Below are positions 1 through 62,186 of a DNA stretch of 64,000 bases, piece after piece. Numbering within the stretch: position 1 is the stretch's first letter; each line of letters starts with the position of its first letter. The DNA is from Carcharhinus longimanus (lineage: Eukaryota): contig JASCQW010000109.1 of NCBI GenBank assembly GCA_030264375.1, positions 18,043,657 to 18,107,656 on the forward strand. Reading direction: 5' to 3'. Made by a program: the position numbers and the translations under genes. The notes beneath the pieces were generated by a model that was given only the letters and a program-made list of their open reading frames with translations, was not told the origin of the DNA and did no database searches.

Positions 1-668
1 CAAATCTACTATACTCCTAATTTTGCAAGTAGGCTGCCTTTTTAATATGCATCACCATCTGCACAATTTACATTTGCAGAATCTCCCATTTAATAATAAG
101 GTTTCATGGTGCAGTAAGCAGCATCCCAGCCTTCGCAAGCTAGAAGCTCCTGGTTTGAGCCCCACCCCAGGACCTGATGGCCAAGGCCGTAACATGGTAA
201 AACAGGTTGAGTGTCACCTGCAAATCCTTCCATCACATGCCAACGACAGCAGGTAAGAGCAGGAAAGGTTCCTGGGCAGGGATGTGATGGAAGGAAAATA
301 GGGGCTGCAACTATCACTACTCGCGGTTCCAGACTACAACATGCATGTAAAAATGCATGTTACCACAGCAACTCAGACTCCAAGTGAATGGCAAACTCCA
401 CTCAATTAATAACCATAAGCTGCTGGTGTGATTCTCATCCATCAGCCCTGTGTTTGATGACATACAGGTTTCTGGTTAAGCATGTCCTGGTTAAGCAATG
501 TCTTAATTTTAAAATTCTTATCTTTGTTTTCAAGTTTCTTCATGCCCTCACCCTTCCCTAGCTCTGCAATCACCTCCAGCGTTACAAACTTCAGAGACAA
601 CAGCACTTCTTCAATTCTCACCTCTTAAGCATCCCTGATCTTAATGATGCTTCAGCTGCCAAGATCCA

Positions 669-2113: not shown

Positions 2114-2511
2114 TAAACTTGGGAGGTGATAGTCTTCCCATGCACCAGCTGCCCTTATGCTTCCCTCAATGCTGTTTTTCTAATAAAATGAATTGCAAGT
2201 TGTAATAGCTCCCCTACATAAACTGGCTGAACTTCCTGTAATGTACAGAATAGTACAAGCCAAATTAAAGCAGGAACCCTGCTGGAGATCCAGGGGCAAC
2301 ATGTTATGCAAATAAAGCGTCCATGGTAACATTTTATATAAACTTACAAAAAATAATGGTCCAAGTCAGGACATGTTGTGTATTGTACAACAGTTCAAAG
2401 CTTTTATTGAGCACTAATCCATTCAGTAGCTGAATAAGGCTGTGGACAGGGCTGGCGGAGGAACAGTTTTTGGAGTTACACGTTAGAGGAGTCAGGCAGC
2501 ACGGTCTTGAT

Positions 2512-2732
2512 CAGAAACAGGAAACGCTGGAAAATCTTAGCAGGTCTGACAGCACCTGTGGAGAGAGAATAGAATCAATGTTTCGAGTTAGGATGAGCCT
2601 TCGTCAGAAGACCATCCAGACTCAAAACATTGGTTCCATTCTCTCTCTCCACAGATGCTGTCAGACCTGCTGACATTTTCTAGTATTTTCTGTTTTTGTT
2701 TCAGGTTCCAGCATCCGCAGTATTTTGCTTTA
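2512..2732 (+). mobile_element. Palindromic Penelope-derived-like element, copy 1
   Basis: Inverted arms (gcaggtctgacagcacctgtggagagagaat / attctctctccacagatgctgtcagacctgc). 14-bp TSD agcacggtcttgat (2498-2511) and agcacagtcttgat (2733-2746). Confidence 0.8.
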
Positions 2733-4472
2733 AGCACAGTCTTGATTTCTAACAATTGATCCAAGCCAAAGTAAACCTGGGTTTGTGCAAGTTAAAATTG
2801 GCTGTATGATTATTGAGCCAGCCCTAGCATCACTATGAATACCATAAAACCAAACACGACGAAACAAGTCATATAGTACAGGATATCCATCACAACACCA
2901 CAGCATCCTCATTTCCGTACCCATGCATCACACAAGCTATTTTGGAGGACTTGTTTGTTGTTCTAAGAGGAAATTAATTGTAATTGCGGCGCTAACTGAT
3001 TCAGGTCCTCAAGAGCTCTTGCAGAAGCTTCATGGCTTAATTTTGTGACTTAACGGTGCCAGTATCTTGAAAAGCACCAAGGCCACACTTTGTTATACAT
3101 TATCTGCAAAGAATTTTGTTTCTTTTTAAATAATAGGTTTCAAATGGTAATTGAGAGATTTATAAAGCTAATCTGTGGTAATCTCAAATTCTGTAAATGC
3201 AGTCACTGGTGTACTTAGACATGTTGCTAGACTTGGCTTAAAAAAACTTCTTCATCACAAACATGCTGCTTATTATGGTTTTGTACTGGTCCAAGGTAAT
3301 CTTTATATAGAATATTCTCCTGCAAACAAAAATCACATGAGCATCACATTACAGCACCAATTGAAAGTGCAGATTCAATGGAAGTAAGTGACTTCACAAC
3401 CTAAGGAAACAACCACTGACTACAATACTCAGAATTAATGGGCTCAATTCTAAAGTCCAGAATACACTTTGACTTGTGGCATTTTCAAAATGACTTTCTA
3501 AAGAAAGTGACTTTCAGTTCACTTTCTAAGCAATGGGTCGAATTTTGAGATTTAGATCAACAGTAACAGCTCCAGCAGCAATCCAGGAGGTCCTCCACTG
3601 GGTACATCTCCTAATCCCAACATCACTCCGTCAGCTAGTACCCACTGCTTCCTCCCTTTGAGCTAATTTCATATTCACCTCATAAATTAAAACTGAGGAT
3701 GCACATTGTTTTGAGCACGTATATAGTCGCATCCTTTTCAGATGGAACTTTACCAGAAGCTTTCTGAAATTGAAGGCACATTTTATTTCATAGTTTCCCA
3801 GCATCCACTTGGCACTTCCTGCCAAGGTAGAACAGGTGAGGTGAAATTCTGTACCCCATTTGGGAACAGAAGAAGAGATTAAAAAAAAGGGAAGAAATGA
3901 AAACATAATGAAAAGGTTACTTCAGGCTCTAAACTTCCTGTAACATCTTGGAAGATCTACTTATCAAACTCTATATTAGTATTCAAATTCTTGAAGCACT
4001 TTAGGCAGGCTGGTGTGAAGCACTGATTGAGTTAGTTTGTTACCACCTTTCCTATTACAGAGCTAAAAATTAACACCAGCACTTGGCCAGAATTAATTAT
4101 GGAGGGATAGGAGATGGGCTGTTAAATCCATTTCACATCCTTACTTTACCAAGTTAGATGCACAGAAAGTCTTTTCTGAAGGCAGTTTACAAAATGCATT
4201 ATGTTTAGCGCAGTCAGTGAACCGATAATGTTTAAAAACTCCAGAAACCATAAAGATCAGAAGTTGTTGAGAGGCATGATGACACCGAAGTCTGGCTTTG
4301 CCTTTACTAATAGAAACTTGGTACCTTTATGTGGAGGTGGGGGTGGGGGGATGCATTTTCATGTTTAAATTTAGGCCTGAACCCAGATCCTTACCTCCCA
4401 ATGTGGAGCAACTCACATTGTGTTGTTTTCCTGTGGACTAAGATCAATTGGTTCCTACGCATTAGCACATAC

Positions 4473-6632: not shown

Positions 6633-9600
6633 TTTCCTCTCCTAAATTAAACGTCCTCAACAAATTCAAGTGCAATATAGATAGTAATCCATAAACAATC
6701 AATAAATCAGATAGTCATCGTAACGTCACTGCTTCAATGATTGGTAGCGAATCTCTGGCGTCTTCTCTGCACTGGTTGTAACCTCTAGCATTTTCATTTT
6801 TGAAAAAAATCATTAGTGGTTAACATAAATAGTGTCAGCATTGATTGGCCTACAGGTGAGGTGTTCCTTTCCTCATCCATGTCTGTCATTGTCAGGGTTG
6901 CAAGATGATTCGGGTCAGGACTTTGTACAGTTAGACCTGGATTTTCAGCAGTTTCCATTTCCAGCGGCTCGGTTCTTCCTGTCAACAACTGGTCTGCATG
7001 TCTCCTCCAATCGACATCATCTCTGGCTTGGATGGTCTATGAGACAAGTCCAGTCTCTGCAAGGATTATGGCAGGAACCCATTTCTCTCCTGTGGAGTAA
7101 TTCCTAGTCAAATCTCCTTGCCCTTGGTAGACGACACAATGTTTTGCTTTTTCACCATTCTCTGTCCTTATTGTTGCTGTGAAATGATTTATTCCGTTTT
7201 CAGCGATTTCAACAAATCGAGTGCCAAAAGTAGTTGTCTTTCAGTATAATGCAGGAAAGATTTGTCATTGAATGTGCATATTCCTATATATTAGCAGGAA
7301 TTGGTCAAGACATTTGAACAGTGAACATTGTTCCCTGGTTGCTTTCAACGTATGTTTCATGGTTTGGGCAAAATGTTCTGCTAGTCTGTTCTTAGCAGAA
7401 TGGTACGGTGCCAACTTAATATTTCAAATACCATTTCCCTTTCTAAAAAACTTCGAATTCTTGGGAGACAAATTAAGATTCATTGTTATTTACCAATTGA
7501 TCGTAGAATCCAAACCTACTAAAGACTTCTCCTTGCCACGCAAAAGTCTTTTCTGATGAAGTAGATTTCATTATAGCAACTTCCAGCCACTTTCAACGAG
7601 CATCAACCATTACGAAGAACAAACATCCTTCAAAAGATCCCAGAAATTCTACATGCATGTATTGCCAAGCCTTTGCTGGTCATTTCTAAAGATGCCAAGG
7701 GTGGCAGCTTTCTTATCTTTGCACATGAAGAACACGTTCCAATTTTCTCTTCAATTTCCACTTCCAATCAAGNNNNNNNNNNNNNNNNNNNNNNNNNNNN
7801 NNNNNNNNNNNNNNNNNNNNNNNNNNNNNNNNNNNNNNNNNNNNNNNNNNNNNNNNNNNNNNNNNNNNNNNNTTGATTGGAAGTGGAAATTGAAGAGAAA
7901 ATTGGAACGTGTTCTTCATGTGCAAAGATAACCACCAATAACTTCTGACTTTTTCTTTCATGCATACAATTCTGCAATGGCCCTCATGCAACTTGTCTAA
8001 CACTAATCTTCTCAATGGTGGTGGAATAATCAAGAGTCCCCATCCTGACTGTACAGGCAGCTCCAATTTTCTACAGGAGCGTAATTTCAAGTCAGGTGTT
8101 ACTTCTAACTTCTTACTTTGTAATACCATTCCCATCACTTCTGAGTGCATCAGATCACTCCAAGTGTTCTTACTTACTTGTTCAGTGACTGGTGTACTGT
8201 CTACCAGTTCAAAGTAGAAGATACTTCTGCTTAAGTAGTTTGACAAGCTACTGGCTGACAAACTACTTGTTGGTGGTAATCTTGAAAGTCAATCCACATT
8301 ACACTGTAGATGTGATTGCCGACACATGTTGGTAATAATTATGTGTAGACAATAGCAATACCCATCTCTGCATTCGATTTGCTGCCATGATATGATTGCC
8401 ATGTGGGGTCCAAAAATGGTAGTTAATGGACAATGGTCCACCAACAGTGTGGTTTTCTTCTGTAAGGATTTATGGAATTTCTTTGCTCCAAAGATAATCT
8501 TTCATGCTTTCAATTTTACTTTCAGCCTTGCTTGACGTTCAAGACGCAAAAGTAATGGGAATGCCACAAGGGGATGCATCATTCACTAACTGTTAGGGTA
8601 CAGTAGGGACAAAATGCTAATAACTTCAGATTTGAGCTACGCTTCTTTGGCTTGATGAAAGCATTATTGCATTGAACTGACCGATCACTTCCACTTCCTG
8701 TTCAGGCACAAGAGATTATGCAATGGTTTTAAAATGGTTGCCAAATTTGAACAAATCTTTCATTATGGTTCAATGTTCTGAGGTGCAGATGTCTCTGCAA
8801 TAGCCTTGACCTCCAAAAGAGATTTGTAAAGACCCGTGGTATTTGGGACATGTCCCAAATACTCAATGGAGGATTGGAAAAACTCACTTGTCCTTGTAGT
8901 CTCTCTGTCCTTGGTCTTCTAATCTTTGAAGAGTGTCATCCATATGCCGAAGATGTGCCTCTTCATCTCTTCCAGTGGCCAGGATGCCACCTAGATAACA
9001 ATGGACTCTGTCCACTCAGGATCTGATCCACTGCCCTTTGAAACAATGCAGGAACAGCTGTGACACCAAACGGCAATATGTCATGATTGCCAGAAGTTCT
9101 TATGACTTCTGGTCTATATTCATCTGTAGGAAAGCTTGGCTTAGGTCAATTTTGCTAAAATGTTGGCCTCCTGTCAATCCCACAATTGTGTCATTGATGT
9201 AGGGTAATGGGTACGGTTCCACACATAATACTGGATTTAGGATGACTTTGAAGTCTTCACAAATCATTATAGATCCATCCTTCTTGATGACAGTTATTAT
9301 TGGTGTAGCGCATTGACTGATGCTGACAGGATCCAAGACCCCTGACTTCACAAATCATTCCAAGTCAGCCTCCACTTTCAGCCTGATAGCACAGGGTACC
9401 AACCTCACCTTCAAGCATTTTGCTTTAATCTTCAATTTAACTGTGATGTCTTTCATACTCCCCAGCTCTCCATCAAACAGTGAGCTTCTTTACAGTCTTT
9501 GCAAAGCCCAATTCATTAATCAAGTTGTCTTTGGCCCAGTTCAGTCAAATCTCTTCTAACCACATTTGACCAATTGATGCTGGCTAATTGCCCTTTACAA

Positions 9601-17744: not shown

Positions 17745-18680
17745 AATAAGAAACAGGAATGGTAGTTCATACAGCCCAATGAGCCTGCTCTCCCATTAGC
17801 AAGATCATGGCTATATTTTTACATTAACTTCACTTTCCCATCCAATCTCCACATCCCTCAATTCACTTAGTGCCATAAAAGCAATTGATCTTAGCCTTGG
17901 GTGGCACAATGGTTAGCACTGCTGCCTCTCAGCGTCAGGGGCCCAGGTTCAATTCGGCCTCGAGTCATTGTCTGGGTGGAGTTTACACATTCTCCCCATG
18001 TCTGCATGGGTTTCCTGTGGTTTCCTCCCACAGTCCAAAGATGTGCGAGTTAGGCTGATTGGCCATTCTACATTGCCCCTTAGTGTCAGGGGATTAGCAG
18101 TGTAAACATGTGGGGTTACAGGAATAGGGCCTGGGTGAGATTGTGGGGTCGGTGCAGACTTGATGGACTGAATGGCCCCCCATCAGCACTGTAGGGCTTC
18201 TATGATTCTCTATACTTATTGAGAGCTCCCTGAGAGTGGAAAATTTCAAAGATTAACAAACCTTAGTGATGAAATTTTTCCTCATCTGAATCCTAAAAAT
18301 GGCAAAGTATTTTTTAATTCTGAGATGATTATCCCTAATTCCATACTCTGCAGTAAGGGGAAAACAGCCCCTCATCATCAACCCTGTCAATTCTCAGAAT
18401 TTTACATGTTTCAAGAGATTGCTCCTCAGTCTAAGATGGAGAGGATAATTGCCCTGGAAAACTACCCTGGACAGCCATCTGATCCCAAGAATCAAGATGG
18501 CGAATCCTTCCTTAGGTCAGGCAAACTAAACTGTACACAATATCTGCAAGTGCGCTCTCACCGAAGTCCTATACAATTGTGCAGACCTTCCTTAACGTCA
18601 TACTCACAATTCCCTTGCAATAAAAGACCTTTACCTTCCCAAGTGCTTATGACACCTGCATGCTAACTTCAGGCAATCTA
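17745..18680 (-). mobile_element. CR1 3' fragment, split by an HE1 SINE
   Basis: Reverse CR1 tail (gagcctgctctcccattagcaagatcatggct) and ccttccttagg...aaactgtacacaatat. Confidence 0.6.
17899..18209 (+). mobile_element. HE1/V-SINE-type SINE
   Basis: gggtggcacaatggttagcactgctgcctc...tttcctcccacagtccaaagatgtgc...ctgtagggcttctatg. Confidence 0.88.
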
Positions 18681-29784: not shown

Positions 29785-30170
29785 ACGACATCCTGACTTC
29801 CCACAGTCCATCCACCCTCTACAAGGTACAAGTCAGGAGGACGATGAAATACTCTATTTACCTGGATGGGTGCAGTTTCAAAACTCAAGAAGCCCATCCA
29901 GGACAAAGCAGCTAATTTGATTAGCACTCCATCTAACACAATAAACATTACTGCAAGTTCCTCTCCAAGCCACACACCAGCCTGACTTGAATTATATCAC
30001 CATTCCTTCACCGTCATCTAATCATAATTCTGGAACTCACTTAACAAGCTTTGTGGGTGTTCGTATATCATTTGGACTGCAGTGGTTTAAGAAGGCAGCT
30101 CGCCACCAGCTTCAGTTAGGAATTGGCAATAACTGCTGGCCTAGCCAGGTACAGCCACACCCACGACATA
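29785..30170 (+). mobile_element. LINE 3' fragment, same family as 54830-57920
   Basis: tccaccctctacaaggtacaagtcaggag...atgaaatactct...ggactgcagtggtttaagaaggcagctcgccacca. Confidence 0.65.
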
Positions 30171-30172
30171 AT

Positions 30173-30500
30173 GGGTAGCACAGCTGCCTCACAGCACTAG
30201 GGACCTGGGTTCAATTCCAGCCTCGGAAGACTCACAGTATGGAGCTTGCACATTTCTCCCCATTTGTGTAGGTTTCCTTTAGCTGCTCCAGGTTGTCTCC
30301 CACAGTCTAAAAATATGCAGGTTAGGTGGATTGGCCATACTAAATTGCCCCTTATTGTCCAACGATGTATAGGATAGCTGAATTAGCCATGGTAAGTGTG
30401 AAGGGTTATGGGGACAGGGCAGAGGATATTTTGTCAAGAGGGTCAGTGTCGGTTTGTTGGGGCCAAAAAGGCGTCCTTCTGCACTGCAGGAATTCTATGA
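30173..30500 (+). mobile_element. HE1/V-SINE-type SINE
   Basis: gctgcctcacagcactagggacctgggttcaattcc...ggttaggtggattggccatactaaattgcccctt. Confidence 0.85.
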
Positions 30501-46562: not shown

Positions 46563-46900
46563 GGTGGCACGGTAGCACAGTGGTTAGCACTGCTGCTTCA
46601 CAGCTCCAGGGACCTGGGTTCGATTCCTGTCTCAAGTCACTGTCTGTGTGGAGTTTGCATATTCTCCTCGTGTCTGTGTGGGTTTCCTCCGAGTGCTCCG
46701 GTTTCCTCCCACAGTCCAAAGACGTGCAGGTTAGATTGATTGGCCATGATAAAATTGCCCCTTAGTGTCCTGAGATGCGTAGGTTAGAGAGATTAGTGAG
46801 TAAAATACGTAGGGATATGGGAGTAGGGACCTGGGTGGGATTGTGGTCAGTGCAGACTTGACGGGCCGAAGGGTCTCTATCTGCACTGTAGCGTTCTATA
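46563..46900 (+). mobile_element. HE1/V-SINE-type SINE, best-preserved copy
   Basis: A box tagcacagtggt, B box ggttcgattcc, intact V-domain gggtttcctccgagtgctccggtttcctcccacagtccaaagac, CpGs retained. Confidence 0.92.
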
Positions 46901-47055
46901 ATTAATAGGTGGTCATGCACACTTGTGTTCCCATATTTGAACTGAAACATGCACGAGACAAGGAATTGTTACTGGAGTCTGGTTGTAGCCTCTGGGAGCT
47001 GGCTGCAAAACTGCATTCACAAACCACAGGGAGCAGCTAACCTAACATTTGTGCT

Positions 47056-47284
47056 AAAAACGGAAAATGCTAGAAAATCTCAGCAGGTCTGATAGCATCT
47101 GAGGGGAGAGAATAGAACCAATGTTTTGAGTCTGGATGACCCTTCGTCAGCTCTGACGAAGGATCAACTAGACTCAAAATGTTGGCTCTATTCTCTCTCC
47201 ACAGATGCTGTCAGACTTGCTGAGATTTTCCAGCATATTTTGTTTTTGTTTCACATTCCAGCACCTGCAGTATTTTGCTTTAAT
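47056..47284 (+). mobile_element. Palindromic Penelope-derived-like element, copy 2
   Basis: Inverted arms of about 95 bp centred on cttcgtcag-ct-ctgacgaag. Perfect 14-bp TSD ctaacatttgtgct (47042-47055, 47285-47298). Confidence 0.85.
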
Positions 47285-47789
47285 CTAACATTTGTGCTGT
47301 TGGAACTGTAGGACAGAAATCTGAATAAAGTAGGACTTTTAAAAAAATATTGGAGAGAGGCACTAACACATTAAGCAGAGGACAGCGAGACGCATAAGTC
47401 CAGGCACAAGTACTCGCCAGGGAATGCACCTCAACTGTGGTTAGAGGTCAGATTTTTAAAAAAAGAGATTATATATGGACACAAGCTGTTCTCCACAAAG
47501 GGACATTATCTTTTATGGGTTACCGGATCGCCAAAGACAAGGACAAGGGCACAGTGCCCTGGGCTAATCATAGGACTATCCAATTTGGCACATGCTAATT
47601 GGGCGATGGTTCAGAAGCAAGTCCTTCTTCTGAGATCCTTGCAATCTGTTCGGGATATATGCTATGATCTAGAGCTGGTGTAATTAATTCAGACTCATCA
47701 CTAGTTAATATAATTATGACACTGCATAATGCATCATTACTCTTGATGAAAGGAGGGTTTAGTGACCAGAGTGTTCAGGTAAATAAATC

Positions 47790-49154: not shown

Positions 49155-49444
49155 ATAGAATCCCTACAGTGCAGGAGGCCACAATCCCACCCAGGCCACA
49201 TCCCCATAACCAGAGGCATTTACCCCAGCTAATCTCCCTGACACCAAGGGGCAATTTTTAGCATGGCCAATCCACCTAACCCGCCCATCTTTGGACGGTG
49301 GGAGGAAACTGGAGTACGCAGAGCAAACCCACGCAGACACGGGGAGAACATGCAAACTCCAAACAGACAATGACCCCAGGCCAGGAATCGAGCCTGGCTC
49401 CCCGGTGGAGAGGTAGCAGTGCTAACCACTGTGTCACCATCACC
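49155..49444 (-). mobile_element. HE1/V-SINE-type SINE
   Basis: ggcaatttttagcatggccaatccacctaacccgc...gcagtgctaaccactgtgtcacc. Confidence 0.88.
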
Positions 49445-57608: not shown

Positions 57609-57887
57609 GGCACCATGGCAGCACAGTGGTAAGCACTGCTGCCTCAGTGCCAGAAACTTGGGTTCAGTTCCAGCCTTGGATGATTGTCTGTGTGGAGTTT
57701 CCAAGTTTGCCCAGTGTCTGCCTGTGTTTCCTCCCACAGACCAAAGATGTGTAGGTTAGATGGATTAACCATGGGAAATGTGTGGGATTACAGGGAGAGG
57801 GTGGACCTGGGCAAGATGTGCTTTTAGAGAGTTGGTACAGACTCACTGGGCTGAATTGCCTCCTTCTCTATATTAAGAGATTCTATG
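57609..57887 (+). mobile_element. HE1/V-SINE-type SINE
   Basis: ggcagcacagtggtaagcactgctgcctcagtgccaga...tttcctcccacagaccaaagatgtgtaggttag. Confidence 0.82.
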
Positions 57888-61889: not shown

Positions 61890-62186
61890 AGCAACATGGT
61901 GGCTAGCACTGCTGCCTCACTGCACCAGGGGCCCAGATTCAATTCTGACCTTTTCCGATTTTCTCCAGGTGCTCCAGTTTCCTCCCACAGGTTAGGTGGA
62001 TTAGCCATGTTAAATTAATTGCCCCTTAAGAGTCCCAAAATGTGTAGGTTAGAGAGATTAGCAGGGTAAATGCATGCGGTTATGGGAATGGAGGAGGGGG
62101 ATGTCAATCTGGGTAAGTAGCTCTGTCAGAATCAGTGCAGAGTTGATGGGCTGAGTGGCCTCCTTCCACACCGTAGGGATTCTATG
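61890..62186 (+). mobile_element. HE1/V-SINE-type SINE with internal deletion
   Basis: ggtggctagcactgctgcctcac...ccaggtgctccagtttcctcccacaggttaggtggatt...gtagggattctatg. Confidence 0.82.

Follow-up and report, generated by a model that had tools for sequence, protein, structure and literature searches.

Insertions of Penelope-like elements (PLEs) have been described as carrying an inverted 5′-truncated copy, a tail of 30-40 bp and a target-site duplication (TSD) of variable length (PMC8557442; PMC3846280; PMC8969392), with the origin of the inverted ends called open in PMC8557442. In Pen2a_Av of Adineta vaga (PMC3846280) and in the general scheme of PMC8557442, the inverted pseudo-LTR is shorter than the direct one by about the length of the tail, the tail occupies one end only, the TSD is variable and a palindrome or overlap lies at the inverted junction. 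A putative TATA box has been noted in the Pen2a_Av pseudo-LTR (PMC3846280); Penelope of D. virilis is described with a TATA-less internal promoter and an intron (PMC2377424). According to Cervera and De la Pena (2014; PMC4209133), the minimal type I hammerheads of metazoan PLE pseudo-LTRs have a short helix I, an extra base after A9, a G10.1-C11.1 pair and a palindromic helix III; they occur as dual motifs 100-700 bp apart on opposite strands or, mostly, singly, in which case they come from truncated PLEs. For Poseidon_Ac of Anolis carolinensis it has been shown in vitro that both target strands are cut and extended, that uncut RNA is the substrate and that two internal reverse transcription start sites, approximately 100-135 nt after the hammerhead, bound the tail (Frangieh et al., 2024; PMC11167929). 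Non-LTR retrozymes, which are non-coding and bear a type I hammerhead related to that of a PLE pseudo-LTR, are arranged as tandem head-to-tail arrays, every unit having its own hammerhead (bioRxiv 10.64898/2026.07.22.740005).

The insertion considered here lies at 47 kb in a 64-kb stretch of Carcharhinus longimanus DNA (the window). It is taken, with a probability of about 0.85, to be an old dead insertion made of two head-to-head 3′ ends of a very common PLE encoding reverse transcriptase (RT) and a GIY-YIG nuclease, its mirror half most likely having been built during insertion. The shark family resembles Pen2a_Av and the scheme of PMC8557442 in its shorter inverted pseudo-LTR, one-ended tail, variable TSD and palindromic junction, and resembles Pen2a_Av also in having a TATA motif. 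Unlike Pen2a_Av its inserts consist of two pseudo-LTR ends only, number thousands and have 5′ ends fixed at the first base of the hammerhead, while its TSDs are mostly 12-15 bp as against 8-10 bp in Pen2a_Av and the scheme (PMC3846280; PMC8557442). Its hammerhead shares the listed traits of PMC4209133, differing in that the two motifs of the 47 kb copy abut and position 17 is a U; sharks are not among the species named in the accessible part of that paper. Its two 3′ end sites, at +100 and +133, fit the two start sites of the Anolis element (PMC11167929), which belongs to the Poseidon clade whereas the shark family is of the Neptune/Nematis type; inverted junctions and the start of the RNA are not treated for Poseidon_Ac in the available text of that study. 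In contrast to the arrays of non-LTR retrozymes, the shark copies are stumps of a coding element, standing alone or head to head. Published PLE features thus include the inverted copy and the tail, the variable TSD, the minimal hammerhead and the dual motifs on opposite strands; the shape was known already and the TATA-anchored 5′ wall described below is a modest, testable addition.

Layout of the insertion and state of its hammerheads

Family positions are numbered from the first base of the hammerhead (+1). The palindromic unit (47056-47284, 229 bp) stands between two identical 14-mers in the window sequence, and its arms (47056-47150 and 47153-47247, 95 nt each) are 85% complementary (Table 1). 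As RNA it folds into a single hairpin of -139.5 kcal/mol (z -17), with 0 of 200 shuffles equally stable. A preliminary description of this DNA was confirmed as regards the palindrome, its perfect TSD of 14 bp, its unpaired tail of 37 bp and the presence of a second copy. The second copy (2512-2732) has the same tail and, as had been claimed, an unrelated TSD (2498-2511 and 2733-2746), which is identical at 13 of 14 positions. These two copies hold the only arm pieces in the window and both are without any coding part.

Table 1. Features of the two copies in the window
Feature	Position	Strand	Remark
Left TSD, 14 bp	47042..47055	+	14/14 identical to 47285-47298
Inverted arm, family +5 to +99	47056..47150	-	90.5% to family majority
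Outer end of inverted arm, at the tail-less 3′ end site of the family	47056	-	
Decayed minimal hammerhead	47114..47150	-	CUGANGA kept, G12 lost, 5′ strand of helix I missing
Head-to-head junction at family +1	47149..47150		2-nt microhomology AG common to both arms
Direct arm, 3′ terminus (pseudo-LTR) of a PLE assigned to the Neptune/Nematis type, +1 to about +136	47149..47284	+	91.7% to family majority
Decayed minimal type I hammerhead	47149..47189	+	Predicted cleavage site 47183/47184
Unpaired PLE tail, 37 bp, between 3′ end sites +100 and +133	47248..47284	+	
Right TSD, 14 bp	47285..47298	+	Identical to left TSD
Second copy including TSDs	2498..2746	+	
Second copy, inverted arm, family +4 to +100	2512-2608		
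Second copy, direct arm, from about +17	2613-2732		Core missing

A minimal type I hammerhead, complete in its core bases and paired at 9 of 9 helix positions, is present in the family majority, which bears out the motif first read from the window. Helix I is formed by +1..4 with +36..39 and the core by +5..11 and +28..31; there is an extra A, a 5-bp helix II and a self-complementary ACGU helix III. Of 33 unselected arms 5 have kept an intact core, and the core-intact pattern is matched exactly by 119 genomic copies. Three CpGs fall within the family hammerhead and paired TG/CA changes are visible at them, in agreement with the earlier attribution of the sequence changes to CpG decay. In the 47 kb copy such decay has converted the catalytic G12 to A on both strands, in keeping with the view that the copies are probably inactive. 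The plus-strand motif has in addition lost the helix III CpG and has one mismatch in helix II, and the minus-strand motif, from which the 5′ strand of helix I is absent, makes 2 of 4 helix I pairs. A hammerhead on each strand had been proposed: both motifs are there, but they are a single sequence read in both directions as a result of the inversion, and while the twin arrangement holds for the 47 kb copy, the plus arm of the second copy is without the CUGANGA core. The hammerhead-like fold of the 47 kb copy is worth approximately -8.5 kcal/mol as against -139.5 kcal/mol for the hairpin, a difference so large that a read-through transcript would not be expected to form the hammerhead; in the folding model the hairpin would sequester both. 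Scanning against Rfam gave no match to a hammerhead model, the only hits being to miRNA-hairpin models and below threshold.

Elsewhere in the window a 60-bp inverted repeat (7713-7931) abuts an assembly gap of 100 Ns and is probably an assembly artefact at the gap, the figure of a 109-nt, 99% palindrome having counted the Ns. SINE copies with tRNA-like heads (families D1-D4 and D7), which we take to be of the shark HE1 type, are located at 46563-46900, 17900-18180, 30160-30390, 57618-57860, 61890-62160, 1780-2110 and 49250-49440, one lying approximately 150 bp to the left of the 47 kb insertion.

The element to which the arm belongs

The arm is the 3′ terminus (pseudo-LTR) of an autonomous-type EN+ Penelope-like element of the Neptune/Nematis type, since longer copies run unbroken from RT through GIY-YIG into the arm. 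One tail-selected copy (L033) carries element sequence upstream of the hammerhead on both arms, and a search with this stretch returned 30 loci, in many of which the sequence goes on into a GIY-YIG nuclease that has the cysteine pair of PLEs. When queries were restricted to coding sequence the arm was also present in 23 of 30 loci from a linker-region search, whose loci reach RT motifs, and in 18 of 30 loci from a protein search; an RT plus GIY-YIG partner sharing the arm was looked for and found. RT, GIY-YIG and arm form one continuous stretch in L092, L101, L111, L112, L115, L189, L190, L196 and L204. These junctions uphold the suspected link to Penelope, whereas the suggestion of a separate non-autonomous ribozyme family or retrozyme is not supported, as in longer copies the arm continues into the coding region.

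In L204 a frame of 433 aa runs from RT to the nuclease without a stop, 590 bp upstream of an arm with 75% identity. Its Pfam matches to RVT_1 (E 1.5e-4) and GIY-YIG (E 0.008) are weak and below curated cut-offs, and 312 relatives of the protein were found at E<=1e-20, among them relatives with PF00078/PF26215/PF01541, the named ones of highest identity (53-58%) coming from sharks and rays. Translations show the nuclease motif VYCIRCxxCxLLYIGET ... EH ... CHF, which accords with the definition of EN+ PLEs (PMC8557442), and the RT-nuclease linker reads C-x4-C-xx-C in L204, L188 and L083, a CX2-5CxxC linker motif being that which defines Neptune and Nematis (PMC8557442). The coding stop codon lies approximately 500 nt before the hammerhead.

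Every coding copy examined is decayed. Among 150 scored of 7117 candidates the longest open frames were below 480 aa with no intact element, and the longest-frame loci inspected were decayed or N-padded. Pfam returned nothing relevant for six short decayed frames and was blank for 3 of 4 longer ones, a sequence search of the PDB gave no significant match, and neither a junction between a 5′ pseudo-LTR and the ORF nor an intact full-length element was found in these searches. Past +133, 200 ends share no sequence except for duplicates and other repeats. A stop-free frame of 25 codons (47205-47279) runs through the tail in the family majority from an ATG at +57, which follows a pyrimidine run and CAG; by analogy with other PLEs that have their first codons in the pseudo-LTR this ATG may be the start of the ORF, and no downstream continuation of the frame was found.

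Ends, architecture and age of the copies

The genome searched comprised 2.68 Gb. A DNA search gave 5554 candidates, of which 40 were scored, and a 26-nt tail motif had 1755 exact matches as against 0 for its control. The tail-selected set consists of 90 of the 100 listed loci (all on contig C1) of these 1755 and includes older related subfamilies; five such loci (L041, L049, L052, L053 and L058) keep the tail and differ in hammerhead helices I and II. The alignment reference holds a piece of SINE approximately 105-160 nt upstream of +1, for which reason distances beyond -100 are lower bounds.

Two 3′ end sites were distinguished. Over the stretch from +98 to +106 the coverage of long copies declines from 75 to 44, and among 67 3′ ends of promoter-bearing long copies 25 are at +95..108 and 22 at +128 or beyond. 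The outer ends of inverted arms lie at +93..108 in 24 of 43 copies, and their inner ends at -3..+8 in 19 of 43, with 2 of 43 further upstream. The 5′ ends of 86 tail-anchored arms were distributed with 25 at -10..+6, small negative values being partly chance extension, 51 further inside and 10 further upstream. Core-intact copies, whose selecting pattern forces a 5′ end at +5 or earlier, start by eye at +1..+3 in 16 of 20 and continue upstream in 4 of 20, two alignments reaching -13 and -14 being judged chance.

Exactly 30 nt before +1, TATAAAT is present in 24 of 30 long copies that had not been found with a TATA-containing query, though the script's alignment of these copies did include the motif; it is 93% conserved as against 80% and 78% on its two sides. 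Among solo copies starting near +1 a TSD was detected in 7 of 24 (control 0 of 96), ending within 7 nt of +1. In two apparent solo copies (L142 and L242) 6-9 bp resembling a miniature inverted arm lie between the TSD and +1. The simplest reading of the sequences is that +1 is likely the 5′ end of the element RNA. With 5′ ends at +1, 30 nt after TATAAAT, and 3′ ends at +100 and +133, the stumps are likely full cDNAs of a short pseudo-LTR transcript.

The architecture of the copies is variable. An inverted arm is present in 43 of 90 tail-selected copies (a threshold reached by control scores in 2 of 90) and absent in 47, and only 2 of 90 have all four ends like those of the 47 kb copy. A perfect AGCT-centred junction has 66 exact matches; in 30 of these, the fixed-centre set, ends of the short arm are scattered between +13 and +121, and those of the long arm lie at +132/133 in 19 copies and at +102..105 in 5. 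The fully self-complementary form keeping both CpGs occurs in 0 of the 66, single forms being common, which may be due to the search itself or to perfect palindromes being depleted. TSDs are 8-19 bp long and mostly 12-15 bp, a range that does away with a length fixed at 14 bp. TSD-like repeats scoring at least 8 were detected in 30 of 82 tail-selected copies as against 0 of 246 mismatched-flank controls (8 of the 90 loci having been dropped because of an alignment off the tail, a 5′ end far upstream or a gap >250), and in two other sets TSDs were detected in 14 of 29 and 6 of 30 copies. Hairpins with 100-380 bp between the arms were also seen (L033, L124, L134, L139, L143, L161, L173 and L177), the inter-arm sequence of L033 being upstream element sequence of both arms. 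No retrozyme-like tandem arrays were found in 140 loci, two same-strand units occurring in 5.

At non-CpG sites arms are approximately 7% away from the family majority, and they differ by 14% from each other. Contigs of two other organisms link the tail to the right flank of the 47 kb copy, placing the insertion before their split, and among the joints listed in an empty-site search none skipped the element, a further alignment of the left flank giving no coverage of its unique part. A literature search that had most subscription journals outside its reach turned up no description of the family, and none of a PLE hammerhead preceded at 30 nt by a TATA box.

Origin of the head-to-head stump

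That arm lengths, centres and TSDs all vary between copies indicates that the mirror half is most likely made at each insertion. The preliminary description had left the choice between a unit rebuilt at each insertion and one moving as a fixed hairpin: the former is supported and the latter is not, the ends varying in sets unselected for likeness to the query. A 229-bp hairpin master, non-autonomous in the manner of a retrozyme, transcribed and retroposed whole would account for the 30 best matches to the 47 kb copy having mostly the same outer ends and for some arm-specific alleles being lopsided among them, but that set was picked for resembling the query, and R15A, L38T and L50C/R50T, the alleles in question, do not co-travel (p 0.4-1.0), with 4 of 15 pairings involving site 21 nominally linked; as the unselected sets show variable centres and ends and no fixed arm-specific difference (one nominal site), and 47 of the 90 tail-selected copies are without an inverted arm, a fixed master is largely refuted and now very improbable, a minor lineage of re-copied hairpins being possible. 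A miniature inverted-repeat transposon (MITE) with long inverted arms, to which shortness, palindromy and high copy number might point, is refuted: the ends are asymmetric with a one-sided tail, the TSDs long and variable, the 5′ ends truncated and the arm continuous with RT, which agrees with the earlier reading of a retroelement rather than this class. Neither symmetric terminal inverted repeats nor a short fixed TSD was present.

Two further alternatives concern the junction itself. A PLE cDNA reaching +1 could snap back on AGCT, copy itself for a variable distance and be joined to the other target end. The perfect AGCT-centred junctions and the wide spread of short-arm ends are as such folding back would leave them, self-priming from palindromes at inverted junctions has been proposed by Arkhipova et al. 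(PMC3846280), and in the tail-selected set arms of the same copy share variants at 12%, a level reached by 0 of 2000 shuffles, as against 5.2% for random pairs, this sharing falling short of significance in two other sets (p 0.08 and p 0.06). Folding back leaves unexplained, however, why 24 of 43 inverted arms end at the +100 site of tail-less copies, and arms of the same copy disagree at two non-CpG sites, which may be hypermutable, in 17 of 40 and 13 of 45 cases as against 14.6% (p 2e-5 and 0.01). The arm-versus-arm alleles are thus mixed, leaning on these comparisons towards two RNAs in at least some events, and fold-back is possible but on the whole less likely. The wall at +1 might also be a 3′ splice site, or a stop of RT at a pyrimidine run, rather than a start of transcription. 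A branch-point-like CTGAT, a pyrimidine run and AG do occur at -18..+2, and the intron of D. virilis Penelope ends at the 5′ end of helix I (PMC4209133); against this, the TSDs of the solo copies that end at most 7 nt from +1 leave no room for an upstream exon and the TATA box stands at the usual distance from +1, making this reading rather doubtful.

In the preferred reading, in which the mirror half is built during insertion, the pseudo-LTR promoter would make an RNA starting at +1 and the PLE protein would cut the two strands of the target DNA with an offset of about 12-15 bp. Either end so made would then prime reverse transcription inside the RNA, one at +133, giving the arm with the tail, and the other at +100 or at an internal microhomology. 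Both cDNAs would extend to or near the 5′ end of the RNA and be joined there via the self-complementary AGCT at +1..+4, the hammerhead being carried along uncut and afterwards decaying at its CpGs. Inverted arms that end well short of +100, 14 of 43 in the tail-selected set and 18 of 30 in the fixed-centre set (ends +13 to +86), would need internal priming or fold-back synthesis. Against this reading stand also the copies in which no TSD was detected, and the searches that returned neither an intact element nor a junction of 5′ pseudo-LTR and ORF from which the short RNA might come.

The 47 kb copy itself is ordinary, a dead stump of a known class of retroelement, and its value is statistical. 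Palindromes of this kind are liable to be mis-called as MITEs, miRNA hairpins or new ribozyme elements. With its sharp, countable ends, two on the 3′ side and a 5′ wall that follows a TATA box by 30 nt, the family yields concrete predictions, both for CAGE and for the existing in vitro PLE assay. It is suggested tentatively, at somewhat under even odds, that the stumps are a fossil map of the PLE cycle in a vertebrate, in which a TATA-driven RNA would begin at the first base of the hammerhead, placing helix I at the cap, two RNAs would be copied from the two nicked strands, starting at +133 and +100, and the cDNAs would be joined at their self-complementary first four bases. If true, this would account in a single step for three PLE traits, namely the inversion head to head, the tail on one side and the long TSD.
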